A stretch of 64,000 nucleotides of DNA from Gemmatimonadales bacterium. Lineage in GTDB: Bacteria; Gemmatimonadota; Gemmatimonadetes; Gemmatimonadales; GWC2-71-9. The stretch covers positions 11,732-75,731 of the forward strand of contig DASXUE010000049.1 of assembly GCA_036505055.1 (NCBI GenBank). Reading direction: 5' to 3'. This document shows, in pieces, positions 4,490 to 62,529 of this stretch (the first letter of the stretch is position 1; the number at the start of each line of letters is the position of its first letter). A program made the position numbers and the translations under genes. A model generated the notes under the pieces. That model was not told the DNA's origin, did not search any database, and saw nothing but the letters and a program-made list of their open reading frames with translations.

Positions 4490-4494
4490 GAGAA

Positions 4495-5777: not shown

Positions 5778-5804
5778 GGACGGGATAATAACGAATTATC
5801 TTTC

Positions 5805-5865
5805 CCGCAGGCGATGGAGTTCGCCTTCAACCGCCCATCCCAAGGGCTGATGACTCCTACCCGCA
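5805..5865 (+). promoter_or_regulatory. Fluoride riboswitch (crcB RNA motif)
   Basis: GGCGAUGGAGUUCGCC-UUC-AACCGCCC-AUCCCAA-GGGCUGAUGACUCCUAC closely matches the crcB motif (compare T. petrophila GGCGAUGAGGCCCGCCCAAACUGCCCUGAAAAGGGCUGAUGGCCUCUAC). It lies directly upstream of crcB, and an AT-rich putative promoter lies just 5' of it. Confidence 0.9.
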
Positions 5866-5889
5866 CCGACCGACGGGAGGAGTTTCTTC

Positions 5890-16300: not shown

Positions 16301-19300
16301 TCCCGCCGTGCAGCAGGAGCGTGTCCTTGTTGTTCCCCGTCAGGCTGTTCGTCAACAACCCGGGCAGCACGTCGGCCGGGATGTCGAGCGCGTACAGGTT
16401 CCCCGTGAGCGTGTTGCCGCTGATCTGGTCGGCCGGGTTGAAGCGGCGCACGCGTGCCACCAGGCCGACGCCGGCCGACTGGCGAATGAGGTTGTCCCGC
16501 ACCTGGAAGCCGAGCGGAGGCCCGCGCTTCACGACGATGCCGTGGAAGGCGCTCGAATCGCTCACGACCGAGTCGATCGCGAACGGCGCGGAGCCGATCG
16601 GCGCGTCGACCCACAGGTTCGCGTTCAGCGGCTCGAAGAACCCGATGACGATGACTTCCCGCCCCCCGCCGAACGAGGCCTGGTAGCCGCCGTGTACCAG
16701 CCGCAGGTGTCGCACGACGGGCGTGCCGCTCTGCGCGCCGAGGTAGAGGCCGCCCCAGCCGGGCCGACCCAGCCGGTTCCGCAGCACCACCGGGCTGGCG
16801 GCGGTGCCGAGCGATACGAGGTTCGCGCTCACGCCGCTCGAGTTCCCGGCCGAGTCCGCGAAGTCGCCGAGGCTCATGGAGGCGGCCGTATCGAAGGCCA
16901 TGACGACGCCGCTATCGAGCGTGAGGTTCACGCCCGTCGGTGACCAGACGTTCAGGTTCCCCGTGAAGAGGTACGGCGCGGCTTGGCGGAAGATCGTGAA
17001 GTTCGGCACGCCGAATCCCACGGTGCCCGAATCGACGACGATCGTGTCACCGAAGCCGCCCGCGCCGAATCCATTGCCCGCGATGGAGTCCTGGAGCCCG
17101 AATCCAGAGAGCTGACTGCCGAAGATGTGGACCCCGGCGACCGCGTTCCCGACGAAGCGGTTCCCCGTGGCGCCGACCAGATTCACGAAGCCGTTGCCGA
17201 TGAACAGGCCTTCCTGTCCGGAGCCGCGGATCGTCGTCGAGTCGAGGCGCAGGACGGGCGCGCCGGTCACGTACTCGGCGTGGATCCCCGAACCCGTGAC
17301 CGAGTCGATCTGGCTGCGGTGCATGTGCAGGCTGCCGGCGAAGTGATGCACGCCGGCGTGCACGCACTGCCGAATGTGCACGCTGTCGAGATCGACCCCC
17401 CCCGCCGGATCGACGAGCAGGATGCATGCTTCGTTGAACGGATTCGCGCGCGCGCCACCCGCGTACTCGATGTCGACGTTGCGCCAGATCTGCGGGCCGA
17501 TCGCCTTCTGCACTTCGAGCCCCTGCCAGAAGCCGGGGCCCGGAGTGGGGCTGTTCGCGGTGAGGTGAATGCTTCCCGGCGTGCCCAGCATCACGAGATC
17601 GCCGGCTTGGCCGAGCGTCGAGTCGCCCACCTGAAGGCCGGCGGCGGAGTCGAACTTGACCGTGGCGCCATCCGCGATCGTCAGGGTCGCCCCATTGAGG
17701 ATCCGGACGTAGGACGAGACGACGTGCGTCCCGGCGGCCGACCACGTTTCGTCGGCGGTGATGTCCGCGGCGTGGACCAAGAGGGGCGCAACCACGACGA
17801 GCTGCAGGCCGTTGGCCGTGACGACGGTGTCGAGCGCCAGCCCGCCGCCGACGAGCGGCAGGTTGAGAGCACCGAAGCCGCCGCTCCGCGACGCGAACGT
17901 CATCACTGTGAACGTGTCGCCCAGGGCCGGCGTGAAGCCGTTGATCAGCGAGACCTGCAGGGCTCCGCCCAGCGCGGCGCTGCCGCTGACGGCCAGCCGG
18001 TCGTACTGCGCACCCGGAGTCGTGCCGCCCAGCTCGATGTGGAGCGACTCGGTCGGGGACGCCGGATAGTTCCCGGTGATGCTCAGGATGCCGGGCCCGC
18101 CCAGGCCCGGACGCACGCTGCCGAAGTTGCTGAAGGCGACGGCATTGACGTTGAAGATGCCCAGGCCTTCGATCGTGCCGGTCGTGTCGTTCGCGAAGCT
18201 CGAACTGCCACCCGCGACGGTGAGGGTGCCGCTCGCCAGCGTGAGCGTGCCCGCGTTGCGGTGCGACGCCGACGTCTTGCTGAGCGTCAGGGCCTGTGCC
18301 GGCGCGACGGCCACGACCAGCGCGCCCCCCGCCTGGTTGTCGATCATCGCGTCGAGCTGTCGGCCGCCCGCGAAGCCCGTGTCGGCGAGGATCGTGGCAC
18401 CCGCCGCGTTCACCAAGACGCCCGTGGTGACGTCGAGGCCGGCGCCGTAGGCGGCGGTCGTGTCGGTCAGCACGATCGTACCGTTGTTCGTGAAGCCCGA
18501 GGCGGCGGTGAGGCGCGAGAAGCCCGTGATGCCGTTGCCGCGGACCCGAATGAGCGACGCCGGGAGCGTGGTGAACGATCCGCCCACGGCCGACGACCCT
18601 TCGACGAACAGGCTGCCGCCGTTCGTGAACGGCGCGTTGATCGTGGACGCCCGCATGAGGAGCGAGCTGCCGGTGTCGTTCGTCACGGCGCCCGGCCCGT
18701 TCACGGTCGCGTTGATCAGCGTCAGGCCGAGGGTGTCGTTCGTGAAGCTCGGCGTGAACGTGGCCACCACGCTGCTCTGCAGCGCCAGGTTGCCGCGCCC
18801 ACCGATCGTGCCGCTCGCGTAGTTGAACGTGCCGCCGCTCAACGCCAGCGTCTGGCCGGCGGCGATTGAGATCGTGCCCGTGGTGCTGAACGCGCCACCC
18901 GCCTGCGACAGCGTGAACCCGCCGCCCGACAGCGTCAGCGTGCCGGTGTGCACGAGGCTCGACACGCCCGACTGGTTGATGTTGAGCGCGCCGCTCGCCA
19001 CGACGATCGTCCCGGTGTTCGAGTCGGCGGCGGCGGCGTGCGCCACGGTCAGCGACTGTCCCGGAGCCACGTCGACCGTGATGGTGCCGCGGTTGTAGAA
19101 CTGCGCGTTGAGCTGGCGCGGCCCCGCGGCACCCTGCGACGCGTCGATCCCGGCACCCACGGCGTTGATGAGGACGCCGCTCGTCACGTCGAGCCCCGCG
19201 CCGTAGGCGGCGGTCGAGTCGGTCAGCTGGATCTGGCCGTTGTTCGTGAATCCGTTCGCGACGGTCAGCCGCGAGAGGCCGGTCGTGCCGTTCCCCTGAA

Positions 19301-22300
19301 TCCGGATCGACGACGTGGTGGCCGTCGTGAAGCTGCCGCCCAGCGCGCTGTTCCCATCCACCTGGAGGGTGCCGTTGTTCACGAACGGCGCGTTGATCGT
19401 GCTCGCGCGCATCGCCAGCGTGTGCCCGACGAGGTTCGTGATCGTCCCGGGGCCGTTGACGGTCGCATTGACGAGCACGAGCGAGGTCACGCTGTCCGCG
19501 AACGACGGGGTGAAGTTCGCCGTTACGCCGCCGATCAGGGCGAGCGCCCCGGCGCCACCGATCGTCGCCCCGGCGTTGTAGTTGAATGTCCCGCTCGACA
19601 CCTTGAACGTGTCCGCCGCGCCGACGGTGACGCCGCCGGTGAGCGTGAACGTGCCGGTGCCGCCCTGATTCAGCGTGAAATTCCCGCCCGAGAAGTCGAG
19701 GGTGCCGCTCGACACGAGGCTCGGGTTGACCCCCGACTGGGTGATCGTGAGGTCGCCACTCGCGACGGTGATCGTACCGGTATTCGAGTCCACCGCGCTC
19801 GCGTGGGCCATCGTGAGGCCCTGGTTCGCCGCGGTGGCGACCGTTAGCGACCCCTGGTTCGAGAACTGGGCGTTGAGCTGCCGGGGACCGGCCGAGCCGG
19901 TCGGGGCGATGATGCTGGCGCCTGCCGCGTTGACGAGCGTTCCGGTCGTGACGTCGAGCCCGGCGCCGTAGGCCGCCGTCGAGTCCGTCAGCACGATTTG
20001 GCCGTTGTTCGTGAACCCGGAGGCCACCGTGAGCTGGGAGAAGCCGGTGGTACCATTCCCCTGGATCCGGATCGACGAGGTACCGCCCGTCGTCACGGCG
20101 CCGCCCAGGACGCTGCTCCCATCGACGAACAGCGAACCGTTGTTGACGAACGGCGCGTTGATCGTGCTCGCGCGCATCGACAATGACCGGCCGGCAGCGT
20201 TCGTGATTGTGCCGGGCCCGTTGAGCGTCGCGCTCTGCAGCACCAGACCCATCGAGTCGGTGGCGAAGCTCGGCGTGAAGTTCGCGGTCACGCCGCCCTT
20301 CAAGTGGATCGTTCCCAGGCCGCCGATCTGCGCGCCGGAGTTGTAATTGAACGTGCCGGCGTTGACCGCGAACGAGTCGGTCGCGCCGACAGTGAGCGAT
20401 CCGGTGAGTGTCACGGTGCCAGCGGCGGGCTGGCTGATGGACATCTTCCCGCCGCTCGCGCTGATCGATCCGCTGCTCGTGAAGACGAAGCTCGGCCCCG
20501 CCTGCGTGATGTTGAGCGCACCGCTCGAGATGACGATCGCGCCGGTGTTCGCGTGCCCCGCATCGCCGACCGGCGCCGCCAACGTGACCGCCTGTCCCGC
20601 CGCCGGCGCGACCGTGAACGTCCCCTGGTTGTCCAGCGAGGCGTTGATCTGCCGCGGTCCACCGGAGCCCTGGTTCGCGACGAGCAGCGCGCCCGCCGCG
20701 TTCACCAACGGGCCGCCCGCGACGTTGAGCCCCGCTCCATAGGCAGAGGTCGAGTCGGTCAGCGTGATCGTGCCGTTGTTCGTGAAGCCCGATCCGACGC
20801 TGAGCTGCGAGAAGCCCGTTGTGCCGTTGCCCTGCACCCGAATGAGCGAGGTGGCGGTCGTCGTGAGCCCGCTGCTCAGCGTGGTGCCGCCTTCGACGTA
20901 GAGCGTGCCGGCGTTCGCAAACGGCTTGGCGACGATGGTGCCGCGCAACTTGACAGTCCCAGCGTTCGTCAGCGTCCCGAGGCCGCTCAGCTGGCCCGGA
21001 TTGCGGACATCGAGCACGCCTCCGGCATTCACGTCTAGCGCACCACCGACGCCGAGTGCCTGGCTGCCGACGAGCAGCGTCTGCGTTCCGGAGGCACCAC
21101 CGATCTTCAGGCCGCCGATCGTATCGGCCACGTCGAAGGTGACGGTGTACGTCCCGGAGAGGTTGATGACCGCCGTGTCGCCCAGCGCGGGCACCGCACC
21201 GCCACTCCAGTTGGCCGGATTGCTCCAGTTACCGCCCGAGGCGTTGGCCCAGAACACGACGCTGGCCGGCGGGGCGACGTCGAACGCGGCACTCGTGTCC
21301 GGCGCGAGCCCGGTCCCCGTCGCCATCAGCGTGTAACCGGTCCCTGGCTGGTCGATGCGCAGGTCCGCGAACGAGGCGACGCCCGCGCTCGCTCCAACCG
21401 TGAGCGTGCCCGACAGCACGCCGCTCGACGGGTTGGTGCCGAGCGCCACGGTGATGCTGTCGCTGGCTGCGGACACGATGTTGCCGGCCGCGTCCGTGAC
21501 CGCGACCTGCACCGCCGGCGCGATCGCCGTCCCCGCGGCGGCTGCGCTCGGCTGCACCGTGAACGCGAGCGCGACCGGCGCACCCGGCGTGATCGCGAAA
21601 GCGACGCTGGTGTCGGGCACGAGGCCCGCCGACGTCGCGATCAGCCGGTAGCCGCTCGCCGCCTTGCCGAGCGAGAGCCCCGAGAAGGTGGCGACGCCGT
21701 TCACGGCGCTGACCGTCTTCGTGCCGGACAGCGTATCGCCGCCCGGATTCACGCCGAGGCTCAGCGTGATGCTGTTCGTCGCCGTCGGGAGCGGGTTGCC
21801 GCTTCCGTCGAGAACGGTGACCTGGATCGCCGGCGTGATCGCGCTGCCGGACGTGGCGCTCGAGGGCTCGACGGTGAACGCGATCCGCGCGGGCGCCGGT
21901 GCGATCGCCGTCGCCACGAACGTCGCGGTCGCGGTCGTGCCCACCAGCGTGGCGCGCACGGTATCGATCCCGGGCACCGCGCCGAGCTGGTAGGTGACCG
22001 ACGTCTGGCCGTTGGCGAGCGTCGTGGTCGTGTCGGCGCTGGGCGTGCCGTTGCCGAGGACGACGCTCCAGGCGACGCGCGCTCCGCTTACGACGTTGTT
22101 GAACGTGTCGCGCACCACGACGACGAAGGGCGCCGCCAGCACCTTGCCGATCGTGTCGGTCTGGCCGCTGCCCGACACGAGGGCGATGGTCTTGGCCGTC
22201 GCCGCCGTCGCGGTCGCGCCGAAGGTGACGGCGGGAATGGCGGGGAACGCCGGCACCGTCACCTGGAAGCTCTGGGCGCCGATCGCCGATCCCAGCGTGC

Positions 22301-23201
22301 CCGTCACCTGGGCCCGGCCGGCGCCATTGCTCGTGACGGTAGTGTCCGCCGGCGCGCCGCCTGCGGCGAGCGCGCGGAACCGCACACCCACGCCGCCCAC
22401 CGGGAGGTTGTCGCCCGCGCGGACTTCAACCTGGAGCGGCACTGAGAGCGCCCCACCGGCGGCGCCACTCTGCCCGTCGCCCGCGACCTTCACGACCTGC
22501 GTCGGCAGCGGCACGAACGTGGCGATGACGGAGTCGCTCGCGCCGCTGGGTGTGCGGGCGCGCACCGCGACCGAGGTGCGCGACGCCGGCGCGCGCAGCA
22601 CCCCGAAGCCGTTCACCCTGGCGATGGAGGAATCGCTCGTGCTCCAGGCGACGTAGAACTGCGTCACGGGAGCCCCGCCGCTGTCGAACGCCTGCACCTG
22701 GAAGCGGAGCGAATCGCTCCAATAGATGAAAGGCGCGGCCGGCACGATGTCGATGCTGTCCACTCCCGCCCCCGGACCGACATAGGTGTCGATGGGGATT
22801 TCCGTGGGAGTCGGGGTGTCGCCGCCGGTCGTGACCTCGATGAGGTCCGTGCCCTGGAAGAGCGGCTGTGTGCCGGAGAGCGCGATGACGGAGACGCTGA
22901 GCGTCTCTGGAGAGGAAAGGAGGGCGACGTGAATGTCGAGGTCCAAGGCCTCGGAATCGGGCGGCAGGGCGAGCGTCGTGTCGGCCAGGGTGTCAGGCGG
23001 TGGCCCCGGACGGACCACGACGATGCGGACCTGATCGATGGCCAGGCCGAAGCTCGCGAGCGCCGCCTCGGACGGCAGGACGGGCGCGAACACGACGCGT
23101 CCCTGCCCGGCGCCGGTGCCATGGGGCCCGAGCGCATCGCGGCAGGTCGCGACAGCGAGCCCGAGCCCTAGGGCGGCGAGCGCGCGAATGCGAGGCGACA
23201 C
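13314..23201 (-). CDS. Giant (3295 aa) lipoprotein-like surface protein. Order of domains: Ig-like domains, then 4 tandem ~255-aa beta-strand repeats, then parallel beta-helix region, then further Ig-like region, then C-terminal YVTN-type beta-propeller.
   Basis: GTG start. N-terminus MSPRIRALAALGLGLAVATC is lipobox-like. Big_2-like and Ig-like segments span aa ~145-645 (nt ~21267-22769). A PATR-like WANASGGNWSNPANW follows. Repeats span aa ~746-1700. Beta-helix-like segments span aa ~1810-2500 (nt ~15702-17774). YVTN repeats (RVYVVNTSSNNLSVFD, MIYVSNSAAGSVTVLD, KVYVANASNNIVHEID) span aa ~2990-3295 (nt 13317-14234). Confidence 0.85.
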   Translation of the reverse strand: MSPRIRALAALGLGLAVATCRDALGPHGTGAGQGRVVFAPVLPSEAALASFGLAIDQVRIVVVRPGPPPDTLADTTLALPPDSEALDLDIHVALLSSPETLSVSVIALSGTQPLFQGTDLIEVTTGGDTPTPTEIPIDTYVGPGAGVDSIDIVPAAPFIYWSDSLRFQVQAFDSGGAPVTQFYVAWSTSDSSIARVNGFGVLRAPASRTSVAVRARTPSGASDSVIATFVPLPTQVVKVAGDGQSGAAGGALSVPLQVEVRAGDNLPVGGVGVRFRALAAGGAPADTTVTSNGAGRAQVTGTLGSAIGAQSFQVTVPAFPAIPAVTFGATATAATAKTIALVSGSGQTDTIGKVLAAPFVVVVRDTFNNVVSGARVAWSVVLGNGTPSADTTTTLANGQTSVTYQLGAVPGIDTVRATLVGTTATATFVATAIAPAPARIAFTVEPSSATSGSAITPAIQVTVLDGSGNPLPTATNSITLSLGVNPGGDTLSGTKTVSAVNGVATFSGLSLGKAASGYRLIATSAGLVPDTSVAFAITPGAPVALAFTVQPSAAAAGTAIAPAVQVAVTDAAGNIVSAASDSITVALGTNPSSGVLSGTLTVGASAGVASFADLRIDQPGTGYTLMATGTGLAPDTSAAFDVAPPASVVFWANASGGNWSNPANWSGGAVPALGDTAVINLSGTYTVTFDVADTIGGLKIGGASGTQTLLVGSQALGVGGALDVNAGGVLDVRNPGQLSGLGTLTNAGTVKLRGTIVAKPFANAGTLYVEGGTTLSSGLTTTATSLIRVQGNGTTGFSQLSVGSGFTNNGTITLTDSTSAYGAGLNVAGGPLVNAAGALLVANQGSGGPRQINASLDNQGTFTVAPAAGQAVTLAAPVGDAGHANTGAIVISSGALNITQAGPSFVFTSSGSISASGGKMSISQPAAGTVTLTGSLTVGATDSFAVNAGTFNYNSGAQIGGLGTIHLKGGVTANFTPSFATDSMGLVLQSATLNGPGTITNAAGRSLSMRASTINAPFVNNGSLFVDGSSVLGGAVTTGGTSSIRIQGNGTTGFSQLTVASGFTNNGQIVLTDSTAAYGAGLDVTTGTLVNAAGASIIAPTGSAGPRQLNAQFSNQGSLTVATAANQGLTMAHASAVDSNTGTITVASGDLTITQSGVNPSLVSSGTLDFSGGNFTLNQGGTGTFTLTGGVTVGAADTFKVSSGTFNYNAGATIGGAGALALIGGVTANFTPSFADSVTSLVLVNATVNGPGTITNLVGHTLAMRASTINAPFVNNGTLQVDGNSALGGSFTTATTSSIRIQGNGTTGLSRLTVANGFTNNGQIQLTDSTAAYGAGLDVTSGVLINAVGAGIDASQGAAGPRQLNAQFYNRGTITVDVAPGQSLTVAHAAAADSNTGTIVVASGALNINQSGVSSLVHTGTLTLSGGGFTLSQAGGAFSTTGTISIAAGQTLALSGGTFNYASGTIGGRGNLALQSSVVATFTPSFTNDTLGLTLINATVNGPGAVTNDTGSSLLMRASTINAPFTNGGSLFVEGSSAVGGSFTTLPASLIRVRGNGITGFSRLTAASGFTNNGTIVLTDTTAAYGAGLDVTTGVLVNAAGATILADTGFAGGRQLDAMIDNQAGGALVVAVAPAQALTLSKTSASHRNAGTLTLASGTLTVAGGSSSFANDTTGTIEGLGIFNVNAVAFSNFGSVRPGLGGPGILSITGNYPASPTESLHIELGGTTPGAQYDRLAVSGSAALGGALQVSLINGFTPALGDTFTVMTFASRSGGFGALNLPLVGGGLALDTVVTANGLQLVVVAPLLVHAADITADETWSAAGTHVVSSYVRILNGATLTIADGATVKFDSAAGLQVGDSTLGQAGDLVMLGTPGSIHLTANSPTPGPGFWQGLEVQKAIGPQIWRNVDIEYAGGARANPFNEACILLVDPAGGVDLDSVHIRQCVHAGVHHFAGSLHMHRSQIDSVTGSGIHAEYVTGAPVLRLDSTTIRGSGQEGLFIGNGFVNLVGATGNRFVGNAVAGVHIFGSQLSGFGLQDSIAGNGFGAGGFGDTIVVDSGTVGFGVPNFTIFRQAAPYLFTGNLNVWSPTGVNLTLDSGVVMAFDTAASMSLGDFADSAGNSSGVSANLVSLGTAASPVVLRNRLGRPGWGGLYLGAQSGTPVVRHLRLVHGGYQASFGGGREVIVIGFFEPLNANLWVDAPIGSAPFAIDSVVSDSSAFHGIVVKRGPPLGFQVRDNLIRQSAGVGLVARVRRFNPADQISGNTLTGNLYALDIPADVLPGLLTNSLTGNNKDTLLLHGGTLAVSDTLPQLGSRWRVTQNVTVDSGAVLSVLPGDTVTFDFNVRLKIGGDVPSALNAVGTSGSPIVFTGPTGLFWGGLEFANLSGAGGVSHLIVERAGSAIPCGGDCLPILFAAIRYSNVSASGLILDAVTVRASPLVALDVDSVVGSPLTVQNSQFYQNALSPMIRSPSPLSLMIHGSDLYHYNGQIIQTATGGSDSLDATGNWWGDAAALYAGFEGNDSLGRAALDASPVRFDVIAGPHFSVGPAAQLTPATDTALTAAINAIVGDPDSIRVRVLDAEGRGVAGTTIQWGVSSGAFQDPGVPSDIGGRAGGVWLTSTAANLQFVQATVPGLIGSPVTWAAFLQPDPTSAVDFQLVFEGPLGDTLTQGQVAADSNSVTFTSSGRRGVLVTHARDTLGNVTHPSGFPDFCFTDVPNSGVCHNVGWFSPFYGSIDSVKADSVFFTVTAALPATMQIRAEYEGGTFVDSIVINMNVAPVGVRITQDTALYGSLCPSVGPYNILCRRTFQAQLVDSAGSPLPPNDVYHFNWTNEVAGDTTVTIDAQSGMMGEFVEVTAHANGTASLVTQQTSGSPLVPDRGTLAITVNQVIANIAVTPDTVSAGLGDTVTFTASATDQGGTPMPGAVGWRQDAPAGQYLTIIDYPSASSIRVRLDSTYPSYPRDAAVITAYTLTAQGDTILGAGVIYNPIIVNETGLGAFPQGSALDPVRNRVYVVNTSSNNLSVFDGDTDKLIQTIDVGSSPASVAVNPVTGMIYVSNSAAGSVTVLDGTRDPIGIVQTISVGLNTGGIAVDTVRNRVYVGSLLRVAEGDLPFLSTIDGATNTLMQTDTVRFSGGGASAPGAVAFNPLTERAFVVLRTDTLAFVDVAGLTIKAAFGDVGFALSGVAVNTQTNLVYVGSGGEVKVIDATPGVDTVFTNVFIGANSAQGMSVNEKRNKVYVANASNNIVHEIDGASNAYRTVIVGAFSDFPQSATVNPETGKVYVPHASALTVLKYFTP
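18102..20966 (-). repeat. Four tandem ~756-771-nt coding repeats inside the giant gene
   Basis: The landmark I(R)(V/I)(Q/R)GNG(T/I)TG(F/L)S(Q/R)L recurs at aa 787, 1044, 1299 and 1551 (nt ~20843, 20072, 19307, 18551). Copies 2 and 3 appear to be around 80% identical at protein level by eye over the stretches compared. Confidence 0.85.
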
Positions 23202-31843: not shown

Positions 31844-32701
31844 ATGCGCGTCGTCTCGCTCCTCCCCGCTGCGACCGAGATCGTGGCGGCGATCGGAGCG
31901 GCGGATCGGCTGGTCGGCGTGTCGCACGAGTGCGACTGGCCCGAGGGCGCCGTGCGCGATCGCCCGCGGGTCACGCGGACGTGGATCGATACGAGCCTCC
32001 CCTCGCGCGCCATCGACCGGCAGGTGTCGCAGGCGGGCGGCAGTCGCCCACCGATCGAGCTGGACCTGGAGGCGCTGCGCCGGGCGAGGCCGGATATTCT
32101 GATCGGCCAGGCGGTGTGCGAGGTGTGCGCCGTGGGCGCAGGGGAAATGGCTCGAGCCCTGGGCGCGCTGGAGGCCGCGCCGCGCGTCGTCACGCTGCAC
32201 GCCCACGACCTGGCCGGCGTCTGGAACGACATCGGGCGCGTGGGCGAAGCGCTGGACCTGTCGGGGGAAGCGGAGGAGCTGGTGGCCGGGTTGCGCTACA
32301 GGCTGCGGCGCCTGCACCACCACATCCCGCATCCCGCATCACGTATCCCGCGGGTCCTGGTGGTGGAATGGCTCGAGCCGCCCTACGTCGCCGGCCACTG
32401 GGTCCCGGAACTGGTGACGGCCGCCGGCGGCGTTGACGTGGCTGCTCGGCACGGTGACCGCTCGTTGATGCGGCCGTGGGCGGAACTCCGCGACCTGTCC
32501 CCGGAGATCGTGGTGATCGCGCTGTGCGGGTTTGACGTCCCCCGCGCGCGCCGCGAGCTGGCGGCGACCACTGACCCCGACGCCCAGGCGCTGTTCGCCT
32601 CGGCCCGGGTCGTGTTTCTCGACGGGAACGCCTACACGTCGCGCCCCGGACCCCGCCTCGTGGAAGGGGCGGAGATCCTTGCGGGGTTGATCCACGGTTG
32701 A
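31844..32701 (+). CDS. BtuF/FhuD-like periplasmic-binding-protein-fold protein without signal peptide
   Basis: Motifs RVVSLLPAATEIVAAIGAADRLVGVSHECDWP and RPDILIGQ. It contains an in-frame copy of the heptamer repeat (HHHIPHPASRIPRV). Confidence 0.6.
   Translation: MRVVSLLPAATEIVAAIGAADRLVGVSHECDWPEGAVRDRPRVTRTWIDTSLPSRAIDRQVSQAGGSRPPIELDLEALRRARPDILIGQAVCEVCAVGAGEMARALGALEAAPRVVTLHAHDLAGVWNDIGRVGEALDLSGEAEELVAGLRYRLRRLHHHIPHPASRIPRVLVVEWLEPPYVAGHWVPELVTAAGGVDVAARHGDRSLMRPWAELRDLSPEIVVIALCGFDVPRARRELAATTDPDAQALFASARVVFLDGNAYTSRPGPRLVEGAEILAGLIHG
32329..32353. repeat. Half-copy of the GCATCCC-heptamer repeat family, in-frame inside a CDS
   Basis: CACATCCCGCATCCCGCATCACGTATCCCGCG encodes HIPHPASRIP. 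Confidence 0.7.
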
Positions 32702-37773: not shown

Positions 37774-38595
37774 ATGCTGCTCGAAGTGGACGGGGTTCGG
37801 CTGTTCACCCGTCGCGTCGGCACCGTCGGGGGGCCCCTCGCGATCGTGCTGCACGGCGGCCCCGGCGCCCACCACGACTACCTCCTTCCACAATACGATC
37901 GCCTGGCGACGGGGCGTGAGCTCTTCTACTACGACCAGCGCGGGGGGGGACAATCCCCCGTGCCGCGCGAGACGCCGGTCGGCTGGCGCGAGCACGTCGC
38001 CGACCTCGACGCGATTCGCGCGCACCTCGGTCTCGAGCGCGTGACGCTGTGCAGCTACTCCTGGGGCGGGCTGCTCGCCCTGCTCTACCTGCTCGAGCAC
38101 CCGCAGCGGGTCGAGCGTCTCGCCCTCGTGTCGCCGGCTTCCCCCACCGTGGCCTACCGGCGGCAGTTCGAGGAGGAGTTCGCGCGCCGCATGGCGGCGC
38201 CCGAGATCCAGCGCGAGCGCGAGGCGCTGCGCGCGAGCGGCGTGCACGATCAGCGCCGCGCCTTCGAGCTGGCCGTCGCCGGCTACTTCCGCGATTTCCG
38301 CGACGCGAAGCACCTGACGTCCTTCCGCGTCACCGCCCGCACCCAGCAGGCCGTCTGGGACAGTTTGGGGGAGTACGATCTCCGTCCTCGCTTGCGGGAC
38401 CTCGCATCCCGCATCTCGCTTCCCGCATCCCGCATCCTTCATGGCACGTTCGATCCCATCCCCATCGCCGGCTCTCGCGAGCTGGCGCAGCTGCTCCACG
38501 CCGATCTCATCGAGCTGCCCACCGGGCACTGCCCCCACGTCGAGGCGACGGAGGAGTTCGTAGGCGCGCTCGACGGATTTCTCCCCCGGTCGTGA
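37774..38595 (+). CDS. Alpha/beta hydrolase (S33 proline-iminopeptidase-like)
   Basis: HGGPG oxyanion motif, YDQRGGGQS and nucleophile elbow SYSWGG. It contains an in-frame heptamer-repeat copy (LASRISLPASRILHG). Confidence 0.8.
   Translation: MLLEVDGVRLFTRRVGTVGGPLAIVLHGGPGAHHDYLLPQYDRLATGRELFYYDQRGGGQSPVPRETPVGWREHVADLDAIRAHLGLERVTLCSYSWGGLLALLYLLEHPQRVERLALVSPASPTVAYRRQFEEEFARRMAAPEIQREREALRASGVHDQRRAFELAVAGYFRDFRDAKHLTSFRVTARTQQAVWDSLGEYDLRPRLRDLASRISLPASRILHGTFDPIPIAGSRELAQLLHADLIELPTGHCPHVEATEEFVGALDGFLPRS
38394..38440. repeat. Copy of the GCATCCC-heptamer repeat family, in-frame inside a CDS
   Basis: GCGGGACCTCGCATCCCGCATCTCGCTTCCCGCATCCCGCATCC. Confidence 0.7.
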
Positions 38596-39305
38596 GGCCC
38601 ACGCCGTTCGGGCTCGCTTTCGAGCACCTGGCCCGTGAGCGCTTTGCCGCAATCGCCGACGACGCGAACCGCGACCGCTTCGTGCTCCAGGAGCCGGTGG
38701 GCCGGCTGCTGCGCGAGATCGTGCCGGAGGATGCGGACGCTGACGGGCTCGAGGCTCACGTGCGGATGCTGCATCACGCCCATCGTCATTGGGCGTCGGG
38801 CGGGTGGGTGTACCGCGTCGGTGAGGCCGCGCTGCGCCGCGCGGCGGCGGGCGGGCCGATCGGCTCGCGTCTGCCCCACCCGGCGCTCTACCTCCAACTC
38901 CCCGACCTGCGAGTGTGGGGCGCGCCGACGGCCGAGGGCGGAGGTGCGCCGGAGCCGCTCGACGGCATGTTCGTCACGGAGACGAGCGAGCCCGGCGCCA
39001 TCGCGGTGCTGGGCATCTTTGGGATGCGGGAGGGCCGGCCCGGGTTCAGCGCGGTGGGCGTGGAGGGCCGCGCGGACGCAGACGATCCGTCGGCCGGTGA
39101 GTCGCTGATCGACGCGGCGCGCGACGACGGCAGCGCGCCGTTCACCCCGACGCTGGCCGGGGGCGCGGAGGCCGGGATCCACTCGCTGGCAAACGTGGGG
39201 GAGCTGCTCCTGCTCACGTGCCGGTTGTTGGCTCAGCTGCCCGCGACTCGGGATGCGGGAGGCGAGATGCGGGATGCGACGGAGCGCATGGTCGATGTCA
39301 GCTAG
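38592..39305 (+). CDS. Hypothetical protein
   Basis: GTG overlaps the upstream stop (GTGA). Amino-acid composition is coding-like and no motif is recognised. The C-terminal ~12 aa (RDAGGEMRDA...) are encoded by the left arm of a heptamer-repeat palindrome. Confidence 0.5.
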   Translation: MRPTPFGLAFEHLARERFAAIADDANRDRFVLQEPVGRLLREIVPEDADADGLEAHVRMLHHAHRHWASGGWVYRVGEAALRRAAAGGPIGSRLPHPALYLQLPDLRVWGAPTAEGGGAPEPLDGMFVTETSEPGAIAVLGIFGMREGRPGFSAVGVEGRADADDPSAGESLIDAARDDGSAPFTPTLAGGAEAGIHSLANVGELLLLTCRLLAQLPATRDAGGEMRDATERMVDVS

Positions 39306-39344
39306 GCAGGCGCGCATCCCGCTTCCCGCATCCCGCATCCCGGA
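39248..39344. repeat. Palindromic GGGATGC/GCATCCC heptamer-repeat element (REP-like hairpin)
   Basis: Left arm CGGGATGCGGGAGGCGAGATGCGGGATGCG (39249-39278) is 27/30 complementary to right arm CGCATCCCGCTTCCCGCATCCCGCATCCCG (39313-39342). The 34-nt loop contains the TAG stop of the upstream gene. Confidence 0.8.
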
Positions 39345-39360
39345 TTACGTTCGTCGTGAC

Positions 39361-40959: not shown

Positions 40960-41600
40960 CGGTGAAGACGAAGTCTCGCCCCGACGTAAAGAAGATCATC
41001 GCGCGCTTCGAGCGCGCCTACCCCGACGCCACCTGCGCCCTACACCACACGAGTGCGCTGGAACTCGTCGTCGCCACGATCCTGTCGGCACAGTGCACCG
41101 ACGCGCGCGTGAACATGGTCACGCCCGTGCTGTTCGCGAAATACCGGACGGCCGCGGACTACGCCGCCGCGGACCCCCGCGTACTCGAGCGTGAGATCCA
41201 GTCGACGGGGTTCTTCCGCAACAAGACCAAGTCGATCATCGGGATGGCGCAGGCGCTCGTGGAGCGCCACGGGGGCGAGGTCCCCGACACGATGGACGCG
41301 CTGACCGCCCTCCCCGGCGTCGGCCGCAAGACGGCCAACGTGATCCTCGGCACGTGGTTCAAGAAGAATGAAGGGGTCGTAGTGGACACCCACGTGCACC
41401 GCCTCACACGGCTCATGAAGCTCACCAAGCAGGACGATCCCGTGAAGATCGAGCGGGATCTCATGGCGCTGCTGCCGCGCGACAAGTGGACCTGGTGGTC
41501 GCATACGCTCATCCAGCACGGCCGTCAGGTGTGCATCGCGCGGCGGCCGAAATGCGAGGAGTGTGTGGTGAATCGGCTCTGCCCGAGTTCGCGGGTGTGA
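40956..41600 (+). CDS. nth: Endonuclease III
   Basis: ATGA overlap with polX. HhH-GPD motif LPGVGRKTANVILG. Fe-S loop is C-X6-C-X2-C-X5-C (CIARRPKCEECVVNRLC). Confidence 0.95.
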   Translation: MTVKTKSRPDVKKIIARFERAYPDATCALHHTSALELVVATILSAQCTDARVNMVTPVLFAKYRTAADYAAADPRVLEREIQSTGFFRNKTKSIIGMAQALVERHGGEVPDTMDALTALPGVGRKTANVILGTWFKKNEGVVVDTHVHRLTRLMKLTKQDDPVKIERDLMALLPRDKWTWWSHTLIQHGRQVCIARRPKCEECVVNRLCPSSRV

Positions 41601-41621
41601 AGCGTTTTACGACGCTACGTC

Positions 41622-41678
41622 GCTACGTTGTACGTCGTGTCTTCCGCGGTTCGTACAACGTACCGTCGTACAACGTAC
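41622..41678 (+). promoter_or_regulatory. Three copies of an 11-nt motif (one inverted, two direct) in the AT-richer leader of the downstream operon
   Basis: TACGTTGTACG is at 41624-41634. Its reverse complement CGTACAACGTA is at 41652-41662 and 41667-41677. The last copy ends 5 nt before the ATG. Confidence 0.4.
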
Positions 41679-41682
41679 AACT

Positions 41683-42840
41683 ATGACCGCCACTCTCCCG
41701 CCAATCGACCGTCCGTCGCTCATCGCCACCCGCCGCGACCTGCACCAGCATCCCGAGCTGGGGTTCGAGGAAACGCGTACCGCCACGCTCGCGGCCGAGC
41801 GGCTGCGCGCCCTCGGCTACGACGTACGGACGGGGGTGGGAAAAACGGGCGTCGTGGCCCTCAAGGCGGGCGACAACGGTCGCTGCGTCTTGCTGCGCGC
41901 GGATATGGACGCCCTCCCCATCGACGAAGCGAACGACGTCCCGTACCGGTCGAAGCATCCAGGCAAGATGCACGCCTGCGGCCACGACGGGCACGTGGCG
42001 ATCGGTCTCGAGGTGGCGCGCCGCCTGGCGGCGGCGCCGCTCCCGGGCAGCGTGAAGTTCGCGTTCCAGCCCGCCGAGGAAGTGTCGAATGGGGCGCGGG
42101 CGATGATCGACGCCGGCGTGCTGCGCGCCCCCGACGTCCATGCGGCGTTCGGCATCCACCTCTGGAACGATCTGCCGGTGGGCACCGTGGGGATCATGCC
42201 GGGACCGATGATGGCGTCGGTCGACGAGTTCGAGATCACGATCCTCGGCCGCGGTGGCCACGCGGCCGCGCCGCACCAGACGGCGGACCCGGTGCTCGTG
42301 GCGGCGCACGTCGTCACCGGACTGCAGAGCCTCGTCTCCCGCCGCCGCAATCCGCTGGAAGAGGGCGTCGTCTCGGTCACCCAGATGCAGGCGGGTCACG
42401 CGTTCAACGTGATCCCGGGACGCGCCGACCTGCGGGGCACCGTGCGCACCTTCGGCGGAAAATTTTGGGAGCAGGCGCCGGCGCTGATCGACGAGACGGC
42501 GCAGGGCATCGCGAGCGCCTTCGGGGCTCGGGCTGAAGTGCGCTACCGGCGCCTCAGCGGACCGACGGTGAACGATCCCGCGATGGCGGCGCTGATGGCG
42601 GACGTCGCCGTCGAAACGGTGGGCCGGGACAACGTGAAGGGCGGCGTGCGCACCATGGGCGGTGAGGACATGTCGTACTTCCTGCAGCAGGTCCCGGGGT
42701 GCTTCGCCTTCGTCGGCTCGGCACCCAAGGGCGCGAAGGGGGCCCCGCACCATAGTGCGACTTTCGACATCGACGAAGAGTCGCTGGTGATCGGTTCGGA
42801 GCTCCTGGCGCGAGTGGCGGTGCGGTACCTCGGCGGGTAG
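41683..42840 (+). CDS. M20-family amidohydrolase (cytoplasmic paralog)
   Basis: Motifs LHQHPELGFEE, LLRADMDALP, MHACGHDGHVAIGL and FQPAEE. Confidence 0.9.
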   Translation: MTATLPPIDRPSLIATRRDLHQHPELGFEETRTATLAAERLRALGYDVRTGVGKTGVVALKAGDNGRCVLLRADMDALPIDEANDVPYRSKHPGKMHACGHDGHVAIGLEVARRLAAAPLPGSVKFAFQPAEEVSNGARAMIDAGVLRAPDVHAAFGIHLWNDLPVGTVGIMPGPMMASVDEFEITILGRGGHAAAPHQTADPVLVAAHVVTGLQSLVSRRRNPLEEGVVSVTQMQAGHAFNVIPGRADLRGTVRTFGGKFWEQAPALIDETAQGIASAFGARAEVRYRRLSGPTVNDPAMAALMADVAVETVGRDNVKGGVRTMGGEDMSYFLQQVPGCFAFVGSAPKGAKGAPHHSATFDIDEESLVIGSELLARVAVRYLGG

Positions 42841-45835: not shown

Positions 45836-47803
45836 ATGTCGAACCAGCTTGCCGCCGAATCGTCGGCCTACCTCAAGTCCGCCGCCCATCAGCCCGTGCA
45901 CTGGCTCCCCTGGGGAGAGGCGGCGTTCGCCCGGGCGCGGGCCGAGGACAAGCCGATCCTCCTCGACATCGGCGCGGTCTGGTGCCACTGGTGCCACGTG
46001 ATGGACGGCGAATCGTACGAGGACGCCGCCGTCGCGGAGGTCCTGAACCGCGAGTTCGTGTGCATCAAGGTCGATCGCGACGAGCGGCCCGATGTGGATA
46101 CGCGCTACCAGCGAGCCGTGCAGGCGCTCTCCGGCCAGGGTGGTTGGCCGCTCACCGCGTTTCTCACACCCGAGGGCGAGGTGTTCTTCGGCGGTACGTA
46201 CTTCCCACCCGAAGGGAATCACTACGGCCGCCCCGGATTCGGGAGTGTGTTGCGCGAGATCGCGCGCGCCTACCGCGAGGAGCGGGAGAAGGTCGCGGGC
46301 AACGCGCGCGCCATCCGGCAGCACGTGACGGAGTCTCTGAACGAAGCGAAAGCCGGCGAGGTGAGCGCCGCGATCGTCGCCCACGCCGCCAACCAGATGG
46401 CGCGGCTGTTCGACATCCGGTACGGCGGGTTCGGCGCCGCGCCCAAGTTCCCGCACCCCGCGGCGTGCGAGTTCCTGCTGGCGCGCTGGCACGACACCAA
46501 GCTCGACTGGCAGCGCGACGTGGTCGAGCGGACGCTCACGGCGATGGCGAAAGGCGGCATCCGCGACCACCTGGGGGGCGGCTTCCACCGCTACGCCGTG
46601 GACGAGCGCTGGATCGTGCCGCATTTCGAGAAGATGTCGTACGACAACTCCGAGCTGCTCAAGGCGTACCTCTCCGCCTACGCCGCCCTCGGCACGCCGC
46701 TGTTCCGTGAGGTGGCGAGCGGCATCGTCGACTGGGTGCTCGAGGTGCTGTCGGACGGAGCCGCATTCTCCACGTCCCAGGACGCGGACGTCGCCTTCGG
46801 CGACGACGGCGACTACTGGACGTGGACGCTGGAGGAAGCAAAGGCGGAACTAACGGCGCGAGAAGGCGCGGTGGTTGCGCGTGTCTTTGACATCGCGGAA
46901 ACCGGGGAGATGCATCACAACCCCAAGAAGAATGTGCTCTGGTGGAAGCACGACCCCTCGGGCGACGACGAATGGCCGATCCTGCGCGCGGCCGTCGCCA
47001 AGCTCAAGGCCGCGCGCGACCGCCGCACCGCGCCGTACGTCGACCGCGCGGCCTACGTGAATTGGAACGCAATGATGGCCGCGGCGTTCCTGCAGGCGGG
47101 CGCGGTGCTGGACCGGCCGGAGTGCAATGCGCTCGCGCTCAAGGTCCTGGAGCGGCTCTGGGGGACGTGGGACGGGGGACGAGGGATGGGGCACGTCATT
47201 GGCCGCGAGGAGCCCTGGGGTCTCCTCGATGACAACGTGCAGGCGGCCGCTGCTTTCCTCGACGCCTACGAAGCAACCGGCAATGCGGTATGGCTCGAGC
47301 GCGCCGAGACGGTGATGTCCTTGTGCGATCGCCTCCACTGGGACGAGGCCGGTGGGGGGTATTTCGATGTGGCTCGCGGCGACCTCGCCTACCTCGGCAC
47401 GAAGGGCAAGCCTGTCCAGGACGCCCCCACGCCGTCGCCCAACGGCGTCGCCGCGCTCGTGCTCGCACGGCTCGCCGCGCTGACCGACAAGCCGGAGTGG
47501 CGCACCCGGCTGGACCGGCAGCTCGCGGCCTTCGCGGGAGGGGCACAGGAACTGGCGCTGTACGGTGCCACGCTGCTCCGCGCCGTCGACTGGGCGGTGC
47601 ACCCCGTGACGCGAATCGAGGTCGCCGGGCCCTCGGGCGACGGTCCGGCGTGCGCGATGCACCTGCTGGCGCTGCAGACCTACCGACCGCGCAGAGCGGT
47701 CGTGCGCACCGTGGCCGAGCGGCCCCGCGCGACGGTCTGCGTGGGGACGTCGTGCTCCCTCCCGGTCGAGGCGCCCGGCGCGCTGGCGGAGCTCCTCGGG
47801 TGA
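45836..47803 (+). CDS. Thioredoxin-domain / DUF255 protein (YyaL/SSP411-like)
   Basis: N-terminal motif KPILLDIGAVWCHWCHVMDGESY. The long C-terminal (alpha/alpha)6-type region is typical of the family. Confidence 0.85.
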   Translation: MSNQLAAESSAYLKSAAHQPVHWLPWGEAAFARARAEDKPILLDIGAVWCHWCHVMDGESYEDAAVAEVLNREFVCIKVDRDERPDVDTRYQRAVQALSGQGGWPLTAFLTPEGEVFFGGTYFPPEGNHYGRPGFGSVLREIARAYREEREKVAGNARAIRQHVTESLNEAKAGEVSAAIVAHAANQMARLFDIRYGGFGAAPKFPHPAACEFLLARWHDTKLDWQRDVVERTLTAMAKGGIRDHLGGGFHRYAVDERWIVPHFEKMSYDNSELLKAYLSAYAALGTPLFREVASGIVDWVLEVLSDGAAFSTSQDADVAFGDDGDYWTWTLEEAKAELTAREGAVVARVFDIAETGEMHHNPKKNVLWWKHDPSGDDEWPILRAAVAKLKAARDRRTAPYVDRAAYVNWNAMMAAAFLQAGAVLDRPECNALALKVLERLWGTWDGGRGMGHVIGREEPWGLLDDNVQAAAAFLDAYEATGNAVWLERAETVMSLCDRLHWDEAGGGYFDVARGDLAYLGTKGKPVQDAPTPSPNGVAALVLARLAALTDKPEWRTRLDRQLAAFAGGAQELALYGATLLRAVDWAVHPVTRIEVAGPSGDGPACAMHLLALQTYRPRRAVVRTVAERPRATVCVGTSCSLPVEAPGALAELLG

Positions 47804-61192: not shown

Positions 61193-62407
61193 ATGCTGAT
61201 CGCTGAGATCATTCAGGTCGCGCTGCAGGCGATCCGAGCCAACAAGCTCAGGTCGTTCTTGACGATGCTGGGCATCATCATCGGCGTGGGCGCCGTGATC
61301 ACGATGGTGGCGCTCGGCAGCGGCGCCCAGAAATCGGTGCAGGCGCGCATCCAGGCCCTTGGGCCGACGCTGCTCTCGCTCTACCCCGGACAGGCGTTCC
61401 GCGGCGGCATCGCGTTCGACCAGCGCGTCAGCCTCATGGTCGATGACTATAAGGCGCTGGCGACCGATGCGCGCTACGTGAAGGCGGTGGTGCCGGAGCT
61501 GACCCGCAATCTCCAGATCAAGCGCGCCGGCCAGAACATCAATGTGAGCGTCGTCGGGACGACGCCGAACTACGTGCAGGTCAAGAACTACACGATCACG
61601 GCGGGCCGGATGTTCACAGCCGGGGAGGACGAGGCGCGCCGCGGATACGCGGTCCTCGGCTCGGCGATCCCGGAGATGTTCAACGCCAATCCCGTCGCCA
61701 TGATCGGCCAGCAAATCCAGATCCGGGGCATTCCTTTCGAGATCATCGGCGTGCTCTCGATGAAGGGATCCGGCGGCGGGTTCGGCAACCCCGACGAGCA
61801 AATCCTCATTCCCCTGCAGACGGCGCGGTACCGCATCATGGGTACCGACCGGCTGCGGTCGATCACCGTCGACGCCGCCGACCTGCAGCACATGACGCTC
61901 GCCATGATCGAGATCGAGCGGGTGCTGCGGCGCGAACATAAGATCCGGCCCGGCGCCGACAACGACTTCCAGATCCGCAACCAGGCGGACGTGCTCGCGA
62001 CCTTCCAGGAAACGACCGAGACGTTCACTTGGCTCCTGGCCGGGATCGCGGCCGTCAGCCTCCTCGTTGGCGGCATCGGGATCATGAACATCATGCTGGT
62101 GTCGGTCACCGAGCGCACCCGGGAGATCGGCGTGCGCAAGGCGCTCGGTGCCACCAAGTTCAACATCATGTTCCAGTTCCTGGTGGAAGCGCTCGTGCTG
62201 TGTCTGGTGGGCGGTCTCATCGGGATCCTGCTGGGCTCGCTGGGCGCGGTGGCGCTCTCGAAGCTCGCGCACTGGAACACGTCCATCAGCATCTTCGCCG
62301 TGCTCCTCGCCTTCGTGTTCAGCGCCGTCGTGGGGCTGTTCTTCGGCATCTGGCCGGCGCGAAGGGCCGCGTCGCTGGACCCTATAGTCGCGCTGCGCTA
62401 CGAATAG
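61193..62407 (+). CDS. MacB-type ABC transporter permease (MacB_PCD + FtsX domains)
   Basis: Motifs NKLRSFLTMLGIIIGVGAVI and GGIGIMNIMLVSVTERTREIGVRKALGA. Confidence 0.9.
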   Translation: MLIAEIIQVALQAIRANKLRSFLTMLGIIIGVGAVITMVALGSGAQKSVQARIQALGPTLLSLYPGQAFRGGIAFDQRVSLMVDDYKALATDARYVKAVVPELTRNLQIKRAGQNINVSVVGTTPNYVQVKNYTITAGRMFTAGEDEARRGYAVLGSAIPEMFNANPVAMIGQQIQIRGIPFEIIGVLSMKGSGGGFGNPDEQILIPLQTARYRIMGTDRLRSITVDAADLQHMTLAMIEIERVLRREHKIRPGADNDFQIRNQADVLATFQETTETFTWLLAGIAAVSLLVGGIGIMNIMLVSVTERTREIGVRKALGATKFNIMFQFLVEALVLCLVGGLIGILLGSLGAVALSKLAHWNTSISIFAVLLAFVFSAVVGLFFGIWPARRAASLDPIVALRYE

Positions 62408-62412
62408 AGGGT

Positions 62413-62433
62413 GCGCCGACGAAGCGTCGGCGC
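62413..62433 (+). terminator. GC-rich hairpin immediately after the efflux operon
   Basis: GCGCCGAC-GAAGC-GTCGGCGC (8-9 bp perfect stem) begins 6 nt after the stop. No U-tract. Confidence 0.5.
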
Positions 62434-62442
62434 CTGCGAGGT

Positions 62443-62514
62443 ACGGGATGCGGGATGCGAGATACGTGGCGACGAATCGCCAGCGCATCCCGCATCCCGC
62501 TTCTCGCATCCCGG
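62443..62514. repeat. Palindromic GGGATGC/GCATCCC heptamer-repeat element (second intergenic copy)
   Basis: Left arm ACGGGATGCGGGATGCGAGATACG and right arm GCGCATCCCGCATCCCGCTTCTCGCATCCCGG are separated by ~17 nt. Confidence 0.75.
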
Positions 62515-62529
62515 CCTTAGATTCCGGCC

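Follow-up and report, generated by a model that had tools for sequence, protein, structure and literature searches.

Tandem heptamer arrays form gene-boundary hairpins in Gemmatimonadales and appear to be remodeled in place

A heptamer hairpin at the boundary of two genes

We examined a 64,000-nt stretch of DNA (here called the window; G+C content, ∼70%) from a Gemmatimonadales bacterium (assembly GCA_036505055.1, contig DASXUE010000049.1), in which an earlier note, made from the letters alone, had described a dispersed palindromic repeat built from the heptamer GGGATGC/GCATCCC. Its best copy is a hairpin at the junction between a gene for a conserved 237-amino-acid (aa) hypothetical protein (38592-39305) and a PolX/PHP gene whose ATG lies at 39361. 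The junction contains the following features.

39249 to 39278, plus strand: G-rich left arm CGGGATGCGGGAGGCGAGATGCGGGATGCG, four units (CGGGATG CGGGAGG CGAGATG CGGGATG CG)
39279 to 39312, plus strand: 34-nt loop, with the final codons of the hypothetical gene 38592-39305 and its TAG stop (39303-39305)
39313 to 39342, plus strand: C-rich right arm CGCATCCCGCTTCCCGCATCCCGCATCCCG, four units (CGCATCC CGCTTCC CGCATCC CGCATCC CG), intergenic
39346 to 39351, plus strand: TACGTT box, 9 nt upstream of the PolX ATG (39361)

The hairpin is as the earlier note had it, with arms that are complementary at 27 of 30 positions around a loop containing the TAG; an inverted-repeat search of the window likewise returned two 30-nt arms, 90% complementary and 34 nt apart. 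Because the hypothetical gene ends in ...LPATRDAGGEMRDATERMVDVS*, the left arm is coding, and it encodes RDAGGEMRDA near the end of the protein, which had also been proposed. The right arm stops 3 nt short of the TACGTT box and 18 nt short of the PolX ATG. RNA folding of positions 39240-39350 gave −65 kcal/mol (z, −4.7). The box itself may be the −10 element of a near-leaderless promoter; TTACGTT, TTAGGTT, or GTACGTT was seen by eye in nearly all of 74 PolX upstream regions.

Empty, one-arm, and two-arm states of the PolX junction

The comparison of presence and absence between relatives, which the earlier note had put forward, was carried out for this junction across 80 metagenome loci (individual loci carry an L number) and revealed four states. 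In the empty state, the hypothetical gene ends ...GAG ATG GAG CGC TTC GTA GAC GTC GCC TAG gctgcCTTCCCGtgTTACGATT, with only CTTCCCG present. Two one-arm states have a C-rich array directly past the stop codon, of 3 units in one and of 4 in the other, and such a right arm alone occurs in orthologs L123-L134, L138, and L140. Both arms are present in the window and in L143. The left arm belongs to a 33-nt block, in frame, that most orthologs in the alignment lack and that turns the protein end LLPEMEHFVDIT into QLPATRDAGGEMRDATERMVDVS.

Between the window and L143, which belong to nonsister lineages, the block hardly differs. Neighbor-joining trees, built for PolX and for the hypothetical gene, place the window as an outgroup to the L143-containing clade and L143 as sister to L128 and L129 (∼85 to 95% nucleotide identity in most 60-nt windows), neither of which carries the block. 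It follows that gain, loss, or patch transfer took place more than once. At the same spot, L126 and L193 have a different G-rich arm (GGGAGGAGGGAACGGAGAAGGG) that is complementary to their own C-rich arm (CCCTTCC...), again with the stop codon in the loop. Over 40 nt, the right arm and the following GGATTACGTTCGTC do not differ between the window, L143, and L123, whose proteins are 67 to 77% identical.

Arrays written into coding sequence

Three further occurrences of the heptamer in the window lie within genes.

38403 to 38437, plus strand: single array of five units (CGCATCC CGCATCT CGCTTCC CGCATCC CGCATCC), in frame, in the alpha/beta-hydrolase gene 37774-38595
32323 to 32351, plus strand: single array of ∼4 units in the periplasmic-binding-protein gene 31844-32701, encoding HIPHPASRIP
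39021 to 39037, plus strand: short coding “trace” (GGGATGCGGGAGGGCCG), probably a chance match

The two single arms inside genes agree with those reported in the earlier note. The hydrolase array encodes ASRISLPASRIL and occupies a hypervariable loop between the conserved motifs W.SLG.YDLR and xxHG..DPIPI; read as its reverse complement, the left arm, which lies 850 nt downstream, matches this array at 29 of 30 positions. Distant orthologs of the hydrolase have a conserved, nonrepetitive loop. Within the closer clade, the loop is filled by arrays of CGCATCC, CGTCCCC, CGCACCA, CGATACC, CACGCCC/CAGGCCC, CGCTCCC, or CTTCCCC, always in frame, and its length ranges from 14 to 19 aa, being 17 aa in the window and most close relatives, as in the outgroup. 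A 7-nt period is meaningless for the protein, so the process is a DNA-level one inside a tolerant loop. L135 and L136 carry CAATACC CAGTACC CAATACC where L137 and L139 carry CGATACC CGGTACC CGATACC, i.e., three parallel CG-to-CA changes with the difference peculiar to the middle unit retained.

L143, which also has the left arm, carries CGCATCC in the hydrolase loop, whereas its close sister L128 carries CGATACC; ∼12 of 24 loop positions differ between them, compared with ∼10% in the flanks, and this is the only difference that looks too fast. The shared unit of the loop array and the left arm, in the window and in L143 alike, hints at short-patch copying between nearby arrays. Arrays written in frame into coding sequence are thus a source of rapid change, both in a protein loop and in a protein C terminus.

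Two further gene boundaries with changing units

The architecture recurs at other gene boundaries in the window, with the same or different units.

62437 to 62466, plus strand: G-rich left arm of a second palindrome (…ACGGGATGCGGGATGCGAGATACG), intergenic
62484 to 62513, plus strand: C-rich right arm of the second palindrome (CGCATCC CGCATCC CGCTTCT CGCATCC CG)
62468 to 62481, plus strand: small inner hairpin (GGCGA-CGAA-TCGCC) within the loop of the second palindrome
62413 to 62433, plus strand: separate perfect hairpin, GCGCCGACG-AAG-CGTCGGCGC, just 3′ of the permease stop; also in L204 and L208
41608 to 41681, plus strand: hairpin of a different unit, with TACGTCG-type and CGTACAA ×4 arms, downstream of the nth stop (41598-41600) and upstream of the M20 peptidase ATG (41683)
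4494 to 4584, plus strand: hairpin of a 10-nt unit (GACGGTCTAA-like arms, G-rich arm 5′), 5 nt after a stop at 4487-4489

The second palindrome, which the earlier note had placed at 62443-62514, is intergenic, as stated there. Its left arm begins 30 nt past the TAG (62405-62407) of an ABC permease gene (61193-62407), and its right arm stops 4 nt before a TAGATT box (62518-62523) and 16 nt before the ATG of a DUF5916 gene (62530). Folding of 62408-62530 gave −78.7 kcal/mol (z, −7.0), and a TGACGNTTCG-like core at the position of the inner hairpin is common to related loci. The hairpin at 4494-4584 (ΔG, −70.6 kcal/mol) sits between convergent genes. Opposed tandem arrays forming a long stem just past a stop codon therefore occur in the window also with units other than GGGATGC.

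The permease of the window is 100% identical to an NCBI protein assigned to a MAG of a Gemmatimonadales bacterium. For the permease/DUF5916 junction, we compared eight orthologs, with permeases that are 88 to 98% identical at the amino acid level. Seven have a hairpin in the same place, with arms of 3 to 4 heptamer units and the G-rich arm first (ΔG, −44 to −66 kcal/mol, mostly with z of <−3.8); the eighth has a single (CGCGTTC)4 array. The unit differs in nearly every lineage (GTGCGTA, common to L201 and L202; GTGGGGA; GCGGATT; GGGAGAA; a GTGCGGG-like unit; and GGGAAAC), so that the hairpin architecture is conserved while the unit sequence changes. Because G-runs are absent from several of these units, the feature conserved at this site is the tandem-heptamer hairpin and not a G-quadruplex motif. 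The stems of L201, L202, L205, and L206 have one mismatch per 7-nt unit (e.g., an A·C in each unit of L201), which indicates that each arm is homogenized internally more than against its partner. We considered whether the arms here are replaced faster than neutral sequence and rejected this, because silent-site identity in the flanking gene is only 0.61 to 0.81; the drift of units thus fits roughly neutral change plus homogenization.

At the nth/M20 junction, ∼20 relatives have an ATGA in which the stop codon of nth overlaps the start codon of M20, and this overlap is likely the original state. Other relatives have heptamer hairpins with GTTACAC-, GTTCCAC-, or GGGAGCG-type arms, and some have a 23-nt minimal palindrome, GTTGCACGTGCAAC. 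In the window (41598-41685), an 86-nt heptamer hairpin parts the two genes, with GTGA on its left and ATGA on its right, i.e., (G/A)TGA on both sides, and the translational coupling of nth to M20 has likely been lost. Many relatives carry an element of another kind between these genes, CCCCGGGC-N4-GCCCGGGG(TCAG), which resembles the repetitive extragenic palindrome (REP) and its paired form (REPIN). It occurs as a 53-nt singlet (L124, L127, L133, and L153) or as a 98- to 110-nt inverted doublet (L122, L123, L134-L136, L140, L160, L170, L176, L181, L194, L196, and L199), and no copy was found in the window. This is how a true dispersed palindromic element looks in these genomes, and the heptamer hairpins are unlike it.

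These junctions bear on the REP/MITE-like reading of the earlier note. On that reading, the family would be a mobile nonautonomous element of the REP/REPIN type or a miniature inverted-repeat transposable element (MITE), spread by a transposase, whether a REP-associated tyrosine transposase (RAYT) or another, whose gene lies elsewhere in the genome. Such mobility would account for one unit at several loci of one genome and in many related genomes, for the order of variant units common to the hydrolase array and the left arm, and for the near identity of the left-arm block in the window and L143. The presence/absence polymorphism of the junctions, the ATGA-like sequence on both sides of the inserts, and the invasion of the nth/M20 site in relatives by CCCCGGGC-N4-GCCCGGGG can be read the same way. 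However, the two GGGATGC palindromes of the window share only their heptamer arms; their loops are unrelated (34 versus 17 nt), their unit number is variable, and inspection of the flanks, which was not a systematic search, showed no shared flank, conserved head (GTAG type), terminal inverted repeat, or target site duplication. Arms occur singly and lengthen from 3 to 4 units, the architecture is the same with different units at orthologous sites, empty and filled sites differ unit-wise and by the in-frame 33-nt block, and the replacement of units in the coding loop keeps length and frame. We therefore regard a mobile element as very improbable.

The boxes beside the right arms raise another explanation, in which the C-rich arm is the −35 element or spacer of a downstream leaderless promoter and the gain or loss of 7-bp units tunes spacing or supplies a weak −35. 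A TAnnTT box lies 6 to 10 nt upstream of the PolX and DUF5916 ATG codons in nearly all orthologs inspected by eye, the right arms end 3 to 4 nt before it, and at the PolX junction TTCCCG, from the conserved variant unit CGCTTCC, is exactly 17 nt upstream of TACGTT; the 40-nt identity of right arm and box across divergent genomes would also fit. This explanation nevertheless seems quite improbable to us. The second palindrome has no comparable −35 at 17 nt, no promoter is expected between the convergent genes around 4494-4584, arrays inside genes cannot be such promoters, and the partner arm is left unexplained. A scan for the sigma-70 consensus found nothing at either window palindrome. The PolX and DUF5916 starts inspected (L121-L208 and the window) had no evident Shine-Dalgarno sequence, which, together with the TAnnTT box, suggests leaderless or near-leaderless promoters in these Gemmatimonadales.

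Number, orientation, and composition of units

Single GGGATGC heptamers are not significantly enriched in the window (22, compared with 15.5 expected; 22 or more in 5 of 100 shuffles). Since they occur at chance level, the “trace” at 39021-39037 that the earlier note counted as a fifth locus, one exact heptamer with a neighbor matching at 6 of 7 positions, is indistinguishable from chance. The arrays, in contrast to single heptamers, are in large excess: a three-unit pattern with at most 3 mismatches has 14 matches in six arrays of the window, versus 0.01 expected. Tandem Repeats Finder assigned these arrays a period of 7 with 4.1 to 5.0 copies. In 636 kb of related Gemmatimonad DNA, period 7 is dominant among tandem repeats, with 75 arrays of at least 3 copies versus 6.2 in codon-shuffled sequence and 15, 25, 8, and 9 arrays of periods 5, 6, 8, and 9, respectively; the loci are mutually orthologous, so these counts are not independent.

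Array traits were scored in 36 Gemmatimonad loci, those among the matches listed in a search of related genomes described below, together with the window. Copy number peaks sharply at four units, which 39 of 56 arrays have (37 of 55 in the set used for the unit logo), with 10 arrays of 3 units, 2 of 5, 3 of 6, and 1 each of 7 and 9. All 14 inverted pairs detected in the Gemmatimonad loci run G-rich arm, loop, C-rich arm, with none in the opposite order, and the second window pair has the same order. By crude gene calls based on G+C content at third codon positions, the majority of arrays lie 1 to 50 nt from a gene end, and no inverted pair falls between divergent genes. The same crude calls placed single in-gene arrays with the C-rich strand as sense in five cases and the G-rich strand in three, and we rejected a sense-strand bias. 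At L122:4370-4435, in the 3′ end of a hypothetical gene, (CCCCGC)×6 is directly followed by GGGGAAT GGGGACT GGGGACG; with its C-rich arm first and its arms only partly complementary, it is the only exception seen to the order of arms.

In the logo of 55 arrays, the unit positions are conserved at.98 (G),.86 (G),.97 (G),.95 (A),.72 (T),.95 (G), and.95 (C), so that position 5 and the middle G (as in GAGATGC variants) are the variable ones. This composition invites a reading in terms of G-quadruplexes or i-motifs, in which four G3 tracts on one strand, spaced 4 nt apart and with C-tracts on the opposite strand, fold as DNA or as RNA and, near gene ends, affect transcription, replication, or translation, as Rehm et al. 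(PMC4692102) read the GGGAATC repeat. The unit is G3N4, the preferred four units are the minimum for an intramolecular quadruplex, G1, G3, and A4 are 95 to 98% conserved, and the right arm 39313-39342 is, on the minus strand, a canonical G3N4G3N4G3N4G3; moreover, circular dichroism supports quadruplexes for the Xanthomonas and Nostoc units (PMC4692102). By sequence, however, a full set of four G3 tracts is found in only one of the 6 window arms and in only 28 of the 55 arrays, variability at the middle G is exceeded at just one other position, and folding would face competition from the pairing of the arms. Hairpins are also kept at orthologous junctions with units that have no G-run (GTGCGTA, GCGGATT, CGTACAA, and GTTGCAC). 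The comparative series argues against the quadruplex reading at these sites, and we consider it unlikely.

Distribution across genomes

A degenerate three-unit pattern occurs in at least 119 stretches of GTDB species genomes. The matches listed include 36 metagenome-assembled genomes (MAGs) of Gemmatimonadaceae, Gemmatimonadales, or Gemmatimonadetes, many with palindromic pairs. The remaining listed matches are from Acidobacteriota, Verrucomicrobiota, Planctomycetota, Chloroflexota, Streptomyces, Vibrio, and others; arrays in these non-Gemmatimonad genomes are mostly longer, single, and often adjoin arrays of other heptamers. Of the “genome-wide REP/MITE-like family” that had been proposed, the part concerning a real, dispersed family holds, and it is lineage-wide; the part concerning a mobile REP or MITE is not supported. 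The only near-identical contig, from a JGI soil metagenome (L001; 99.98%), showed no array difference from the window.

Other features of the window

One more heptamer array with different units lies at 47160-47196 on the plus strand (GGGGACG TGGGACG GGGGACG AGGGATG GGGCACG), G-rich, in frame, and on the sense strand of a thioredoxin-domain gene (45836-47803). At the gathering score, Rfam returned no family for any window hairpin; its sole match was a fluoride riboswitch (crcB motif, RF01734) at 5801-5866 on the plus strand, with 63 bits. A very large open reading frame of 3,259 aa occupies 13314-23093 on the minus strand.

Formation and possible role of the hairpins

At a probability of roughly 55%, we favor the interpretation that the hairpin is a convergent pair of heptamer arrays, formed and remodeled in place as a gene-boundary stem-loop, and not a mobile REP or MITE. 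The 5′ (GGGATGC)∼4 array and, as its complement, the 3′ (GCATCCC)∼4 array would constitute such a pair without having been inserted as a unit. Short seeds at gene boundaries and in tolerant protein loops would give rise to arrays, and replication slippage together with short-patch template switching would keep them homogeneous, acting within an array, between arms, and probably between nearby arrays. The second arm would be written opposite a preexisting one, and the product would be a 27- to 30-bp stem located past one gene's stop codon and ahead of the region where the next gene starts. To judge from the patterns described above, microsatellite dynamics of this slippage and template-switching type are the most likely origin.

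The stems lie past stop codons, between codirectional or convergent genes, and end before a TAnnTT box, and this position fits a gene-boundary stem-loop. By analogy with the REP hairpins of Escherichia coli, the most likely role would be at the transcript level, in the formation or protection of 3′ ends or in the insulation of codirectional genes. The hairpins may also be close to a neutral by-product. Three fixed sites offer a natural series, in which a site may be empty, have one arm or two, or differ in its units between genomes. This series separates what is kept, namely boundary position, 7-nt period, ∼4 units, G-rich arm first, and complementarity of the arms, from what is free, namely unit sequence and G-tracts.

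Several observations weigh against this interpretation. A scan for intrinsic terminators found no terminator-like site at either window palindrome; having no U-tract, the hairpins are not canonical intrinsic terminators. Along the diagonal, the arms of 21 hairpins are 86% Watson-Crick paired, and a structure-free count of the mismatches gives 19 G:T and 19 A:C, an equality by which nothing indicates selection on the sense RNA over the DNA. An excess of G:U pairs, which would be a sign of such selection, appeared in RNAfold counts (60 G:U versus 17 A:C), and we discarded it as an artifact in view of the diagonal count. Under plain slippage, array lengths should decay in frequency rather than peak sharply at four units, nor does slippage alone predict the strict order of the arms. 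Loop units in the hydrolase are homogenized without change of length, although single-unit slippage would shift the frame. One gain, two gains, and several losses of the left arm all fit the neighbor-joining trees, and the 40-nt identity of the right arm and its flank across divergent genomes suggests constraint or drive beyond neutral turnover.

Because the 7-nt quantum, the four-unit mode, the order of the arms, the frame-keeping homogenization, and the arm block shared by nonsister lineages are not predicted by slippage, there is room for a specific array-writing process, in which ∼4 copies of a 7-nt seed would be synthesized reiteratively onto G-rich 3′ ends on both strands. This could happen at a stalled fork or at a break at a small hairpin, followed by short-patch copying from arm to arm and from array to array. 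If true, it would explain the heptamer quantum across many phyla, the four-unit mode, the G-rich arm 5′ on both strands, the length-keeping overwriting of a coding loop, and the near-identical arm blocks in nonsister lineages, and it would amount to a templated mechanism of mutation new to bacteria; we nonetheless hold it to be distinctly unlikely. For annotation, the arrays are best filed as heptamer repeat hairpins rather than as mobile elements.

Comparison with known systems

Like intrinsic terminators, the hairpins are GC-rich stem-loops shortly past a stop codon; they differ from them in having no U-tract, in having stems of 27 to 30 bp rather than 5 to 12 bp, and in that one stem overlaps coding sequence. 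We rejected a CRISPR array, since there are no spacers, and a diversity-generating retroelement, since there is no pair of template and variable regions and the arrays are only ∼30 nt. CsrB carries CAGGAUG repeats, which CGGGAUG resembles; we rejected a CsrA decoy, given that the stem buries the GGA motifs and that single in-gene arrays have no G-rich sense preference.

REP elements act as mRNA 3′ stabilizers in Escherichia coli. REPs, bacterial interspersed mosaic elements (BIMEs), and REPINs with their RAYT (Bertels and Rainey 2011, PMC3116915) are likewise short and palindromic, lie at gene 3′ ends or between cistrons, and often form inverted doublets. They are fixed imperfect palindromes of 20 to 40 nt with a conserved head, copied as units and tied to a RAYT gene, whereas the GGGATGC arms are tandem arrays rather than palindromes, enclose unrelated loops, and evolve in place.

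Tandem heptamers are also known as the short tandemly repeated repetitive (STRR) sequences of heterocystous cyanobacteria (Calothrix/Nostoc), as cited in PMC4692102, and as the TAACTGA direct repeats of Beggiatoaceae, Cyanobacteria, and Bacteroidetes (MacGregor 2015, PMC4679880). With these, the Gemmatimonad arrays share tandem heptamers, a mostly intergenic position, hundreds of copies per genome, a patchy distribution among lineages, and no known mechanism. STRR and TAACTGA repeats are essentially direct only (1 inverted set in 170, in “Maribeggiatoa”), lie just upstream of start codons, and have one unit per genome; in the Gemmatimonad arrays, inverted pairs are common and units vary between sites.

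The closest counterpart is the class of G-rich heptamer repeats described by Rehm et al. (2015, PLoS One, PMC4692102), GGGAATC in Xanthomonas campestris and Xanthomonas citri and GGGGA(C/T)T in Nostoc PCC 7120, and the view of the earlier note, which did not recognize a described element here, does not stand at the level of the class. Those repeats prefer four units, form 70 to 75 “convergent” inverted pairs per Xanthomonas genome and few in Nostoc, are ∼90% intergenic at an average of 28 nt from the upstream open reading frame (ORF), and are rare between divergent ORFs; their function is unknown. According to earlier work cited in the same paper, heptamers have been reported since 2007 as the overrepresented long simple-sequence repeat in bacteria. 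The GGGATGC arrays belong with this class on the same points: a head-to-tail 7-nt unit with a tract of at least three Gs, preference for four units, and convergent inverted pairs, which are dispersed, mostly intergenic, near the end of the upstream ORF, and rare between divergent ORFs, the positions being taken from crude gene calls. The quadruplex trait, judged by sequence alone, is present in part, at the frequencies given above.

Both sets have a unit that starts GGGA or GGGG and pairs capable of forming stem-loops (in Xanthomonas), about half of the arrays have four intact G-tracts, and arrays at the same genes vary in length and sequence between related species. The differences are the unit, GGGATGC, and the host, Gemmatimonadales known from soil MAGs; in the literature searched, including a literal search for the sequence, we found neither a GGGATGC array nor such repeats in Gemmatimonadota. 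The unit and the host are new, and the kind of repeat is already described, its mechanism being unexplained. Beyond the described class, the Gemmatimonadales loci show replacement of the unit at fixed sites, in-frame arrays in protein loops, an arm in the coding 3′ end of a gene, and sister hairpins whose units have no G-run, and these features weaken the quadruplex reading of the class as described.

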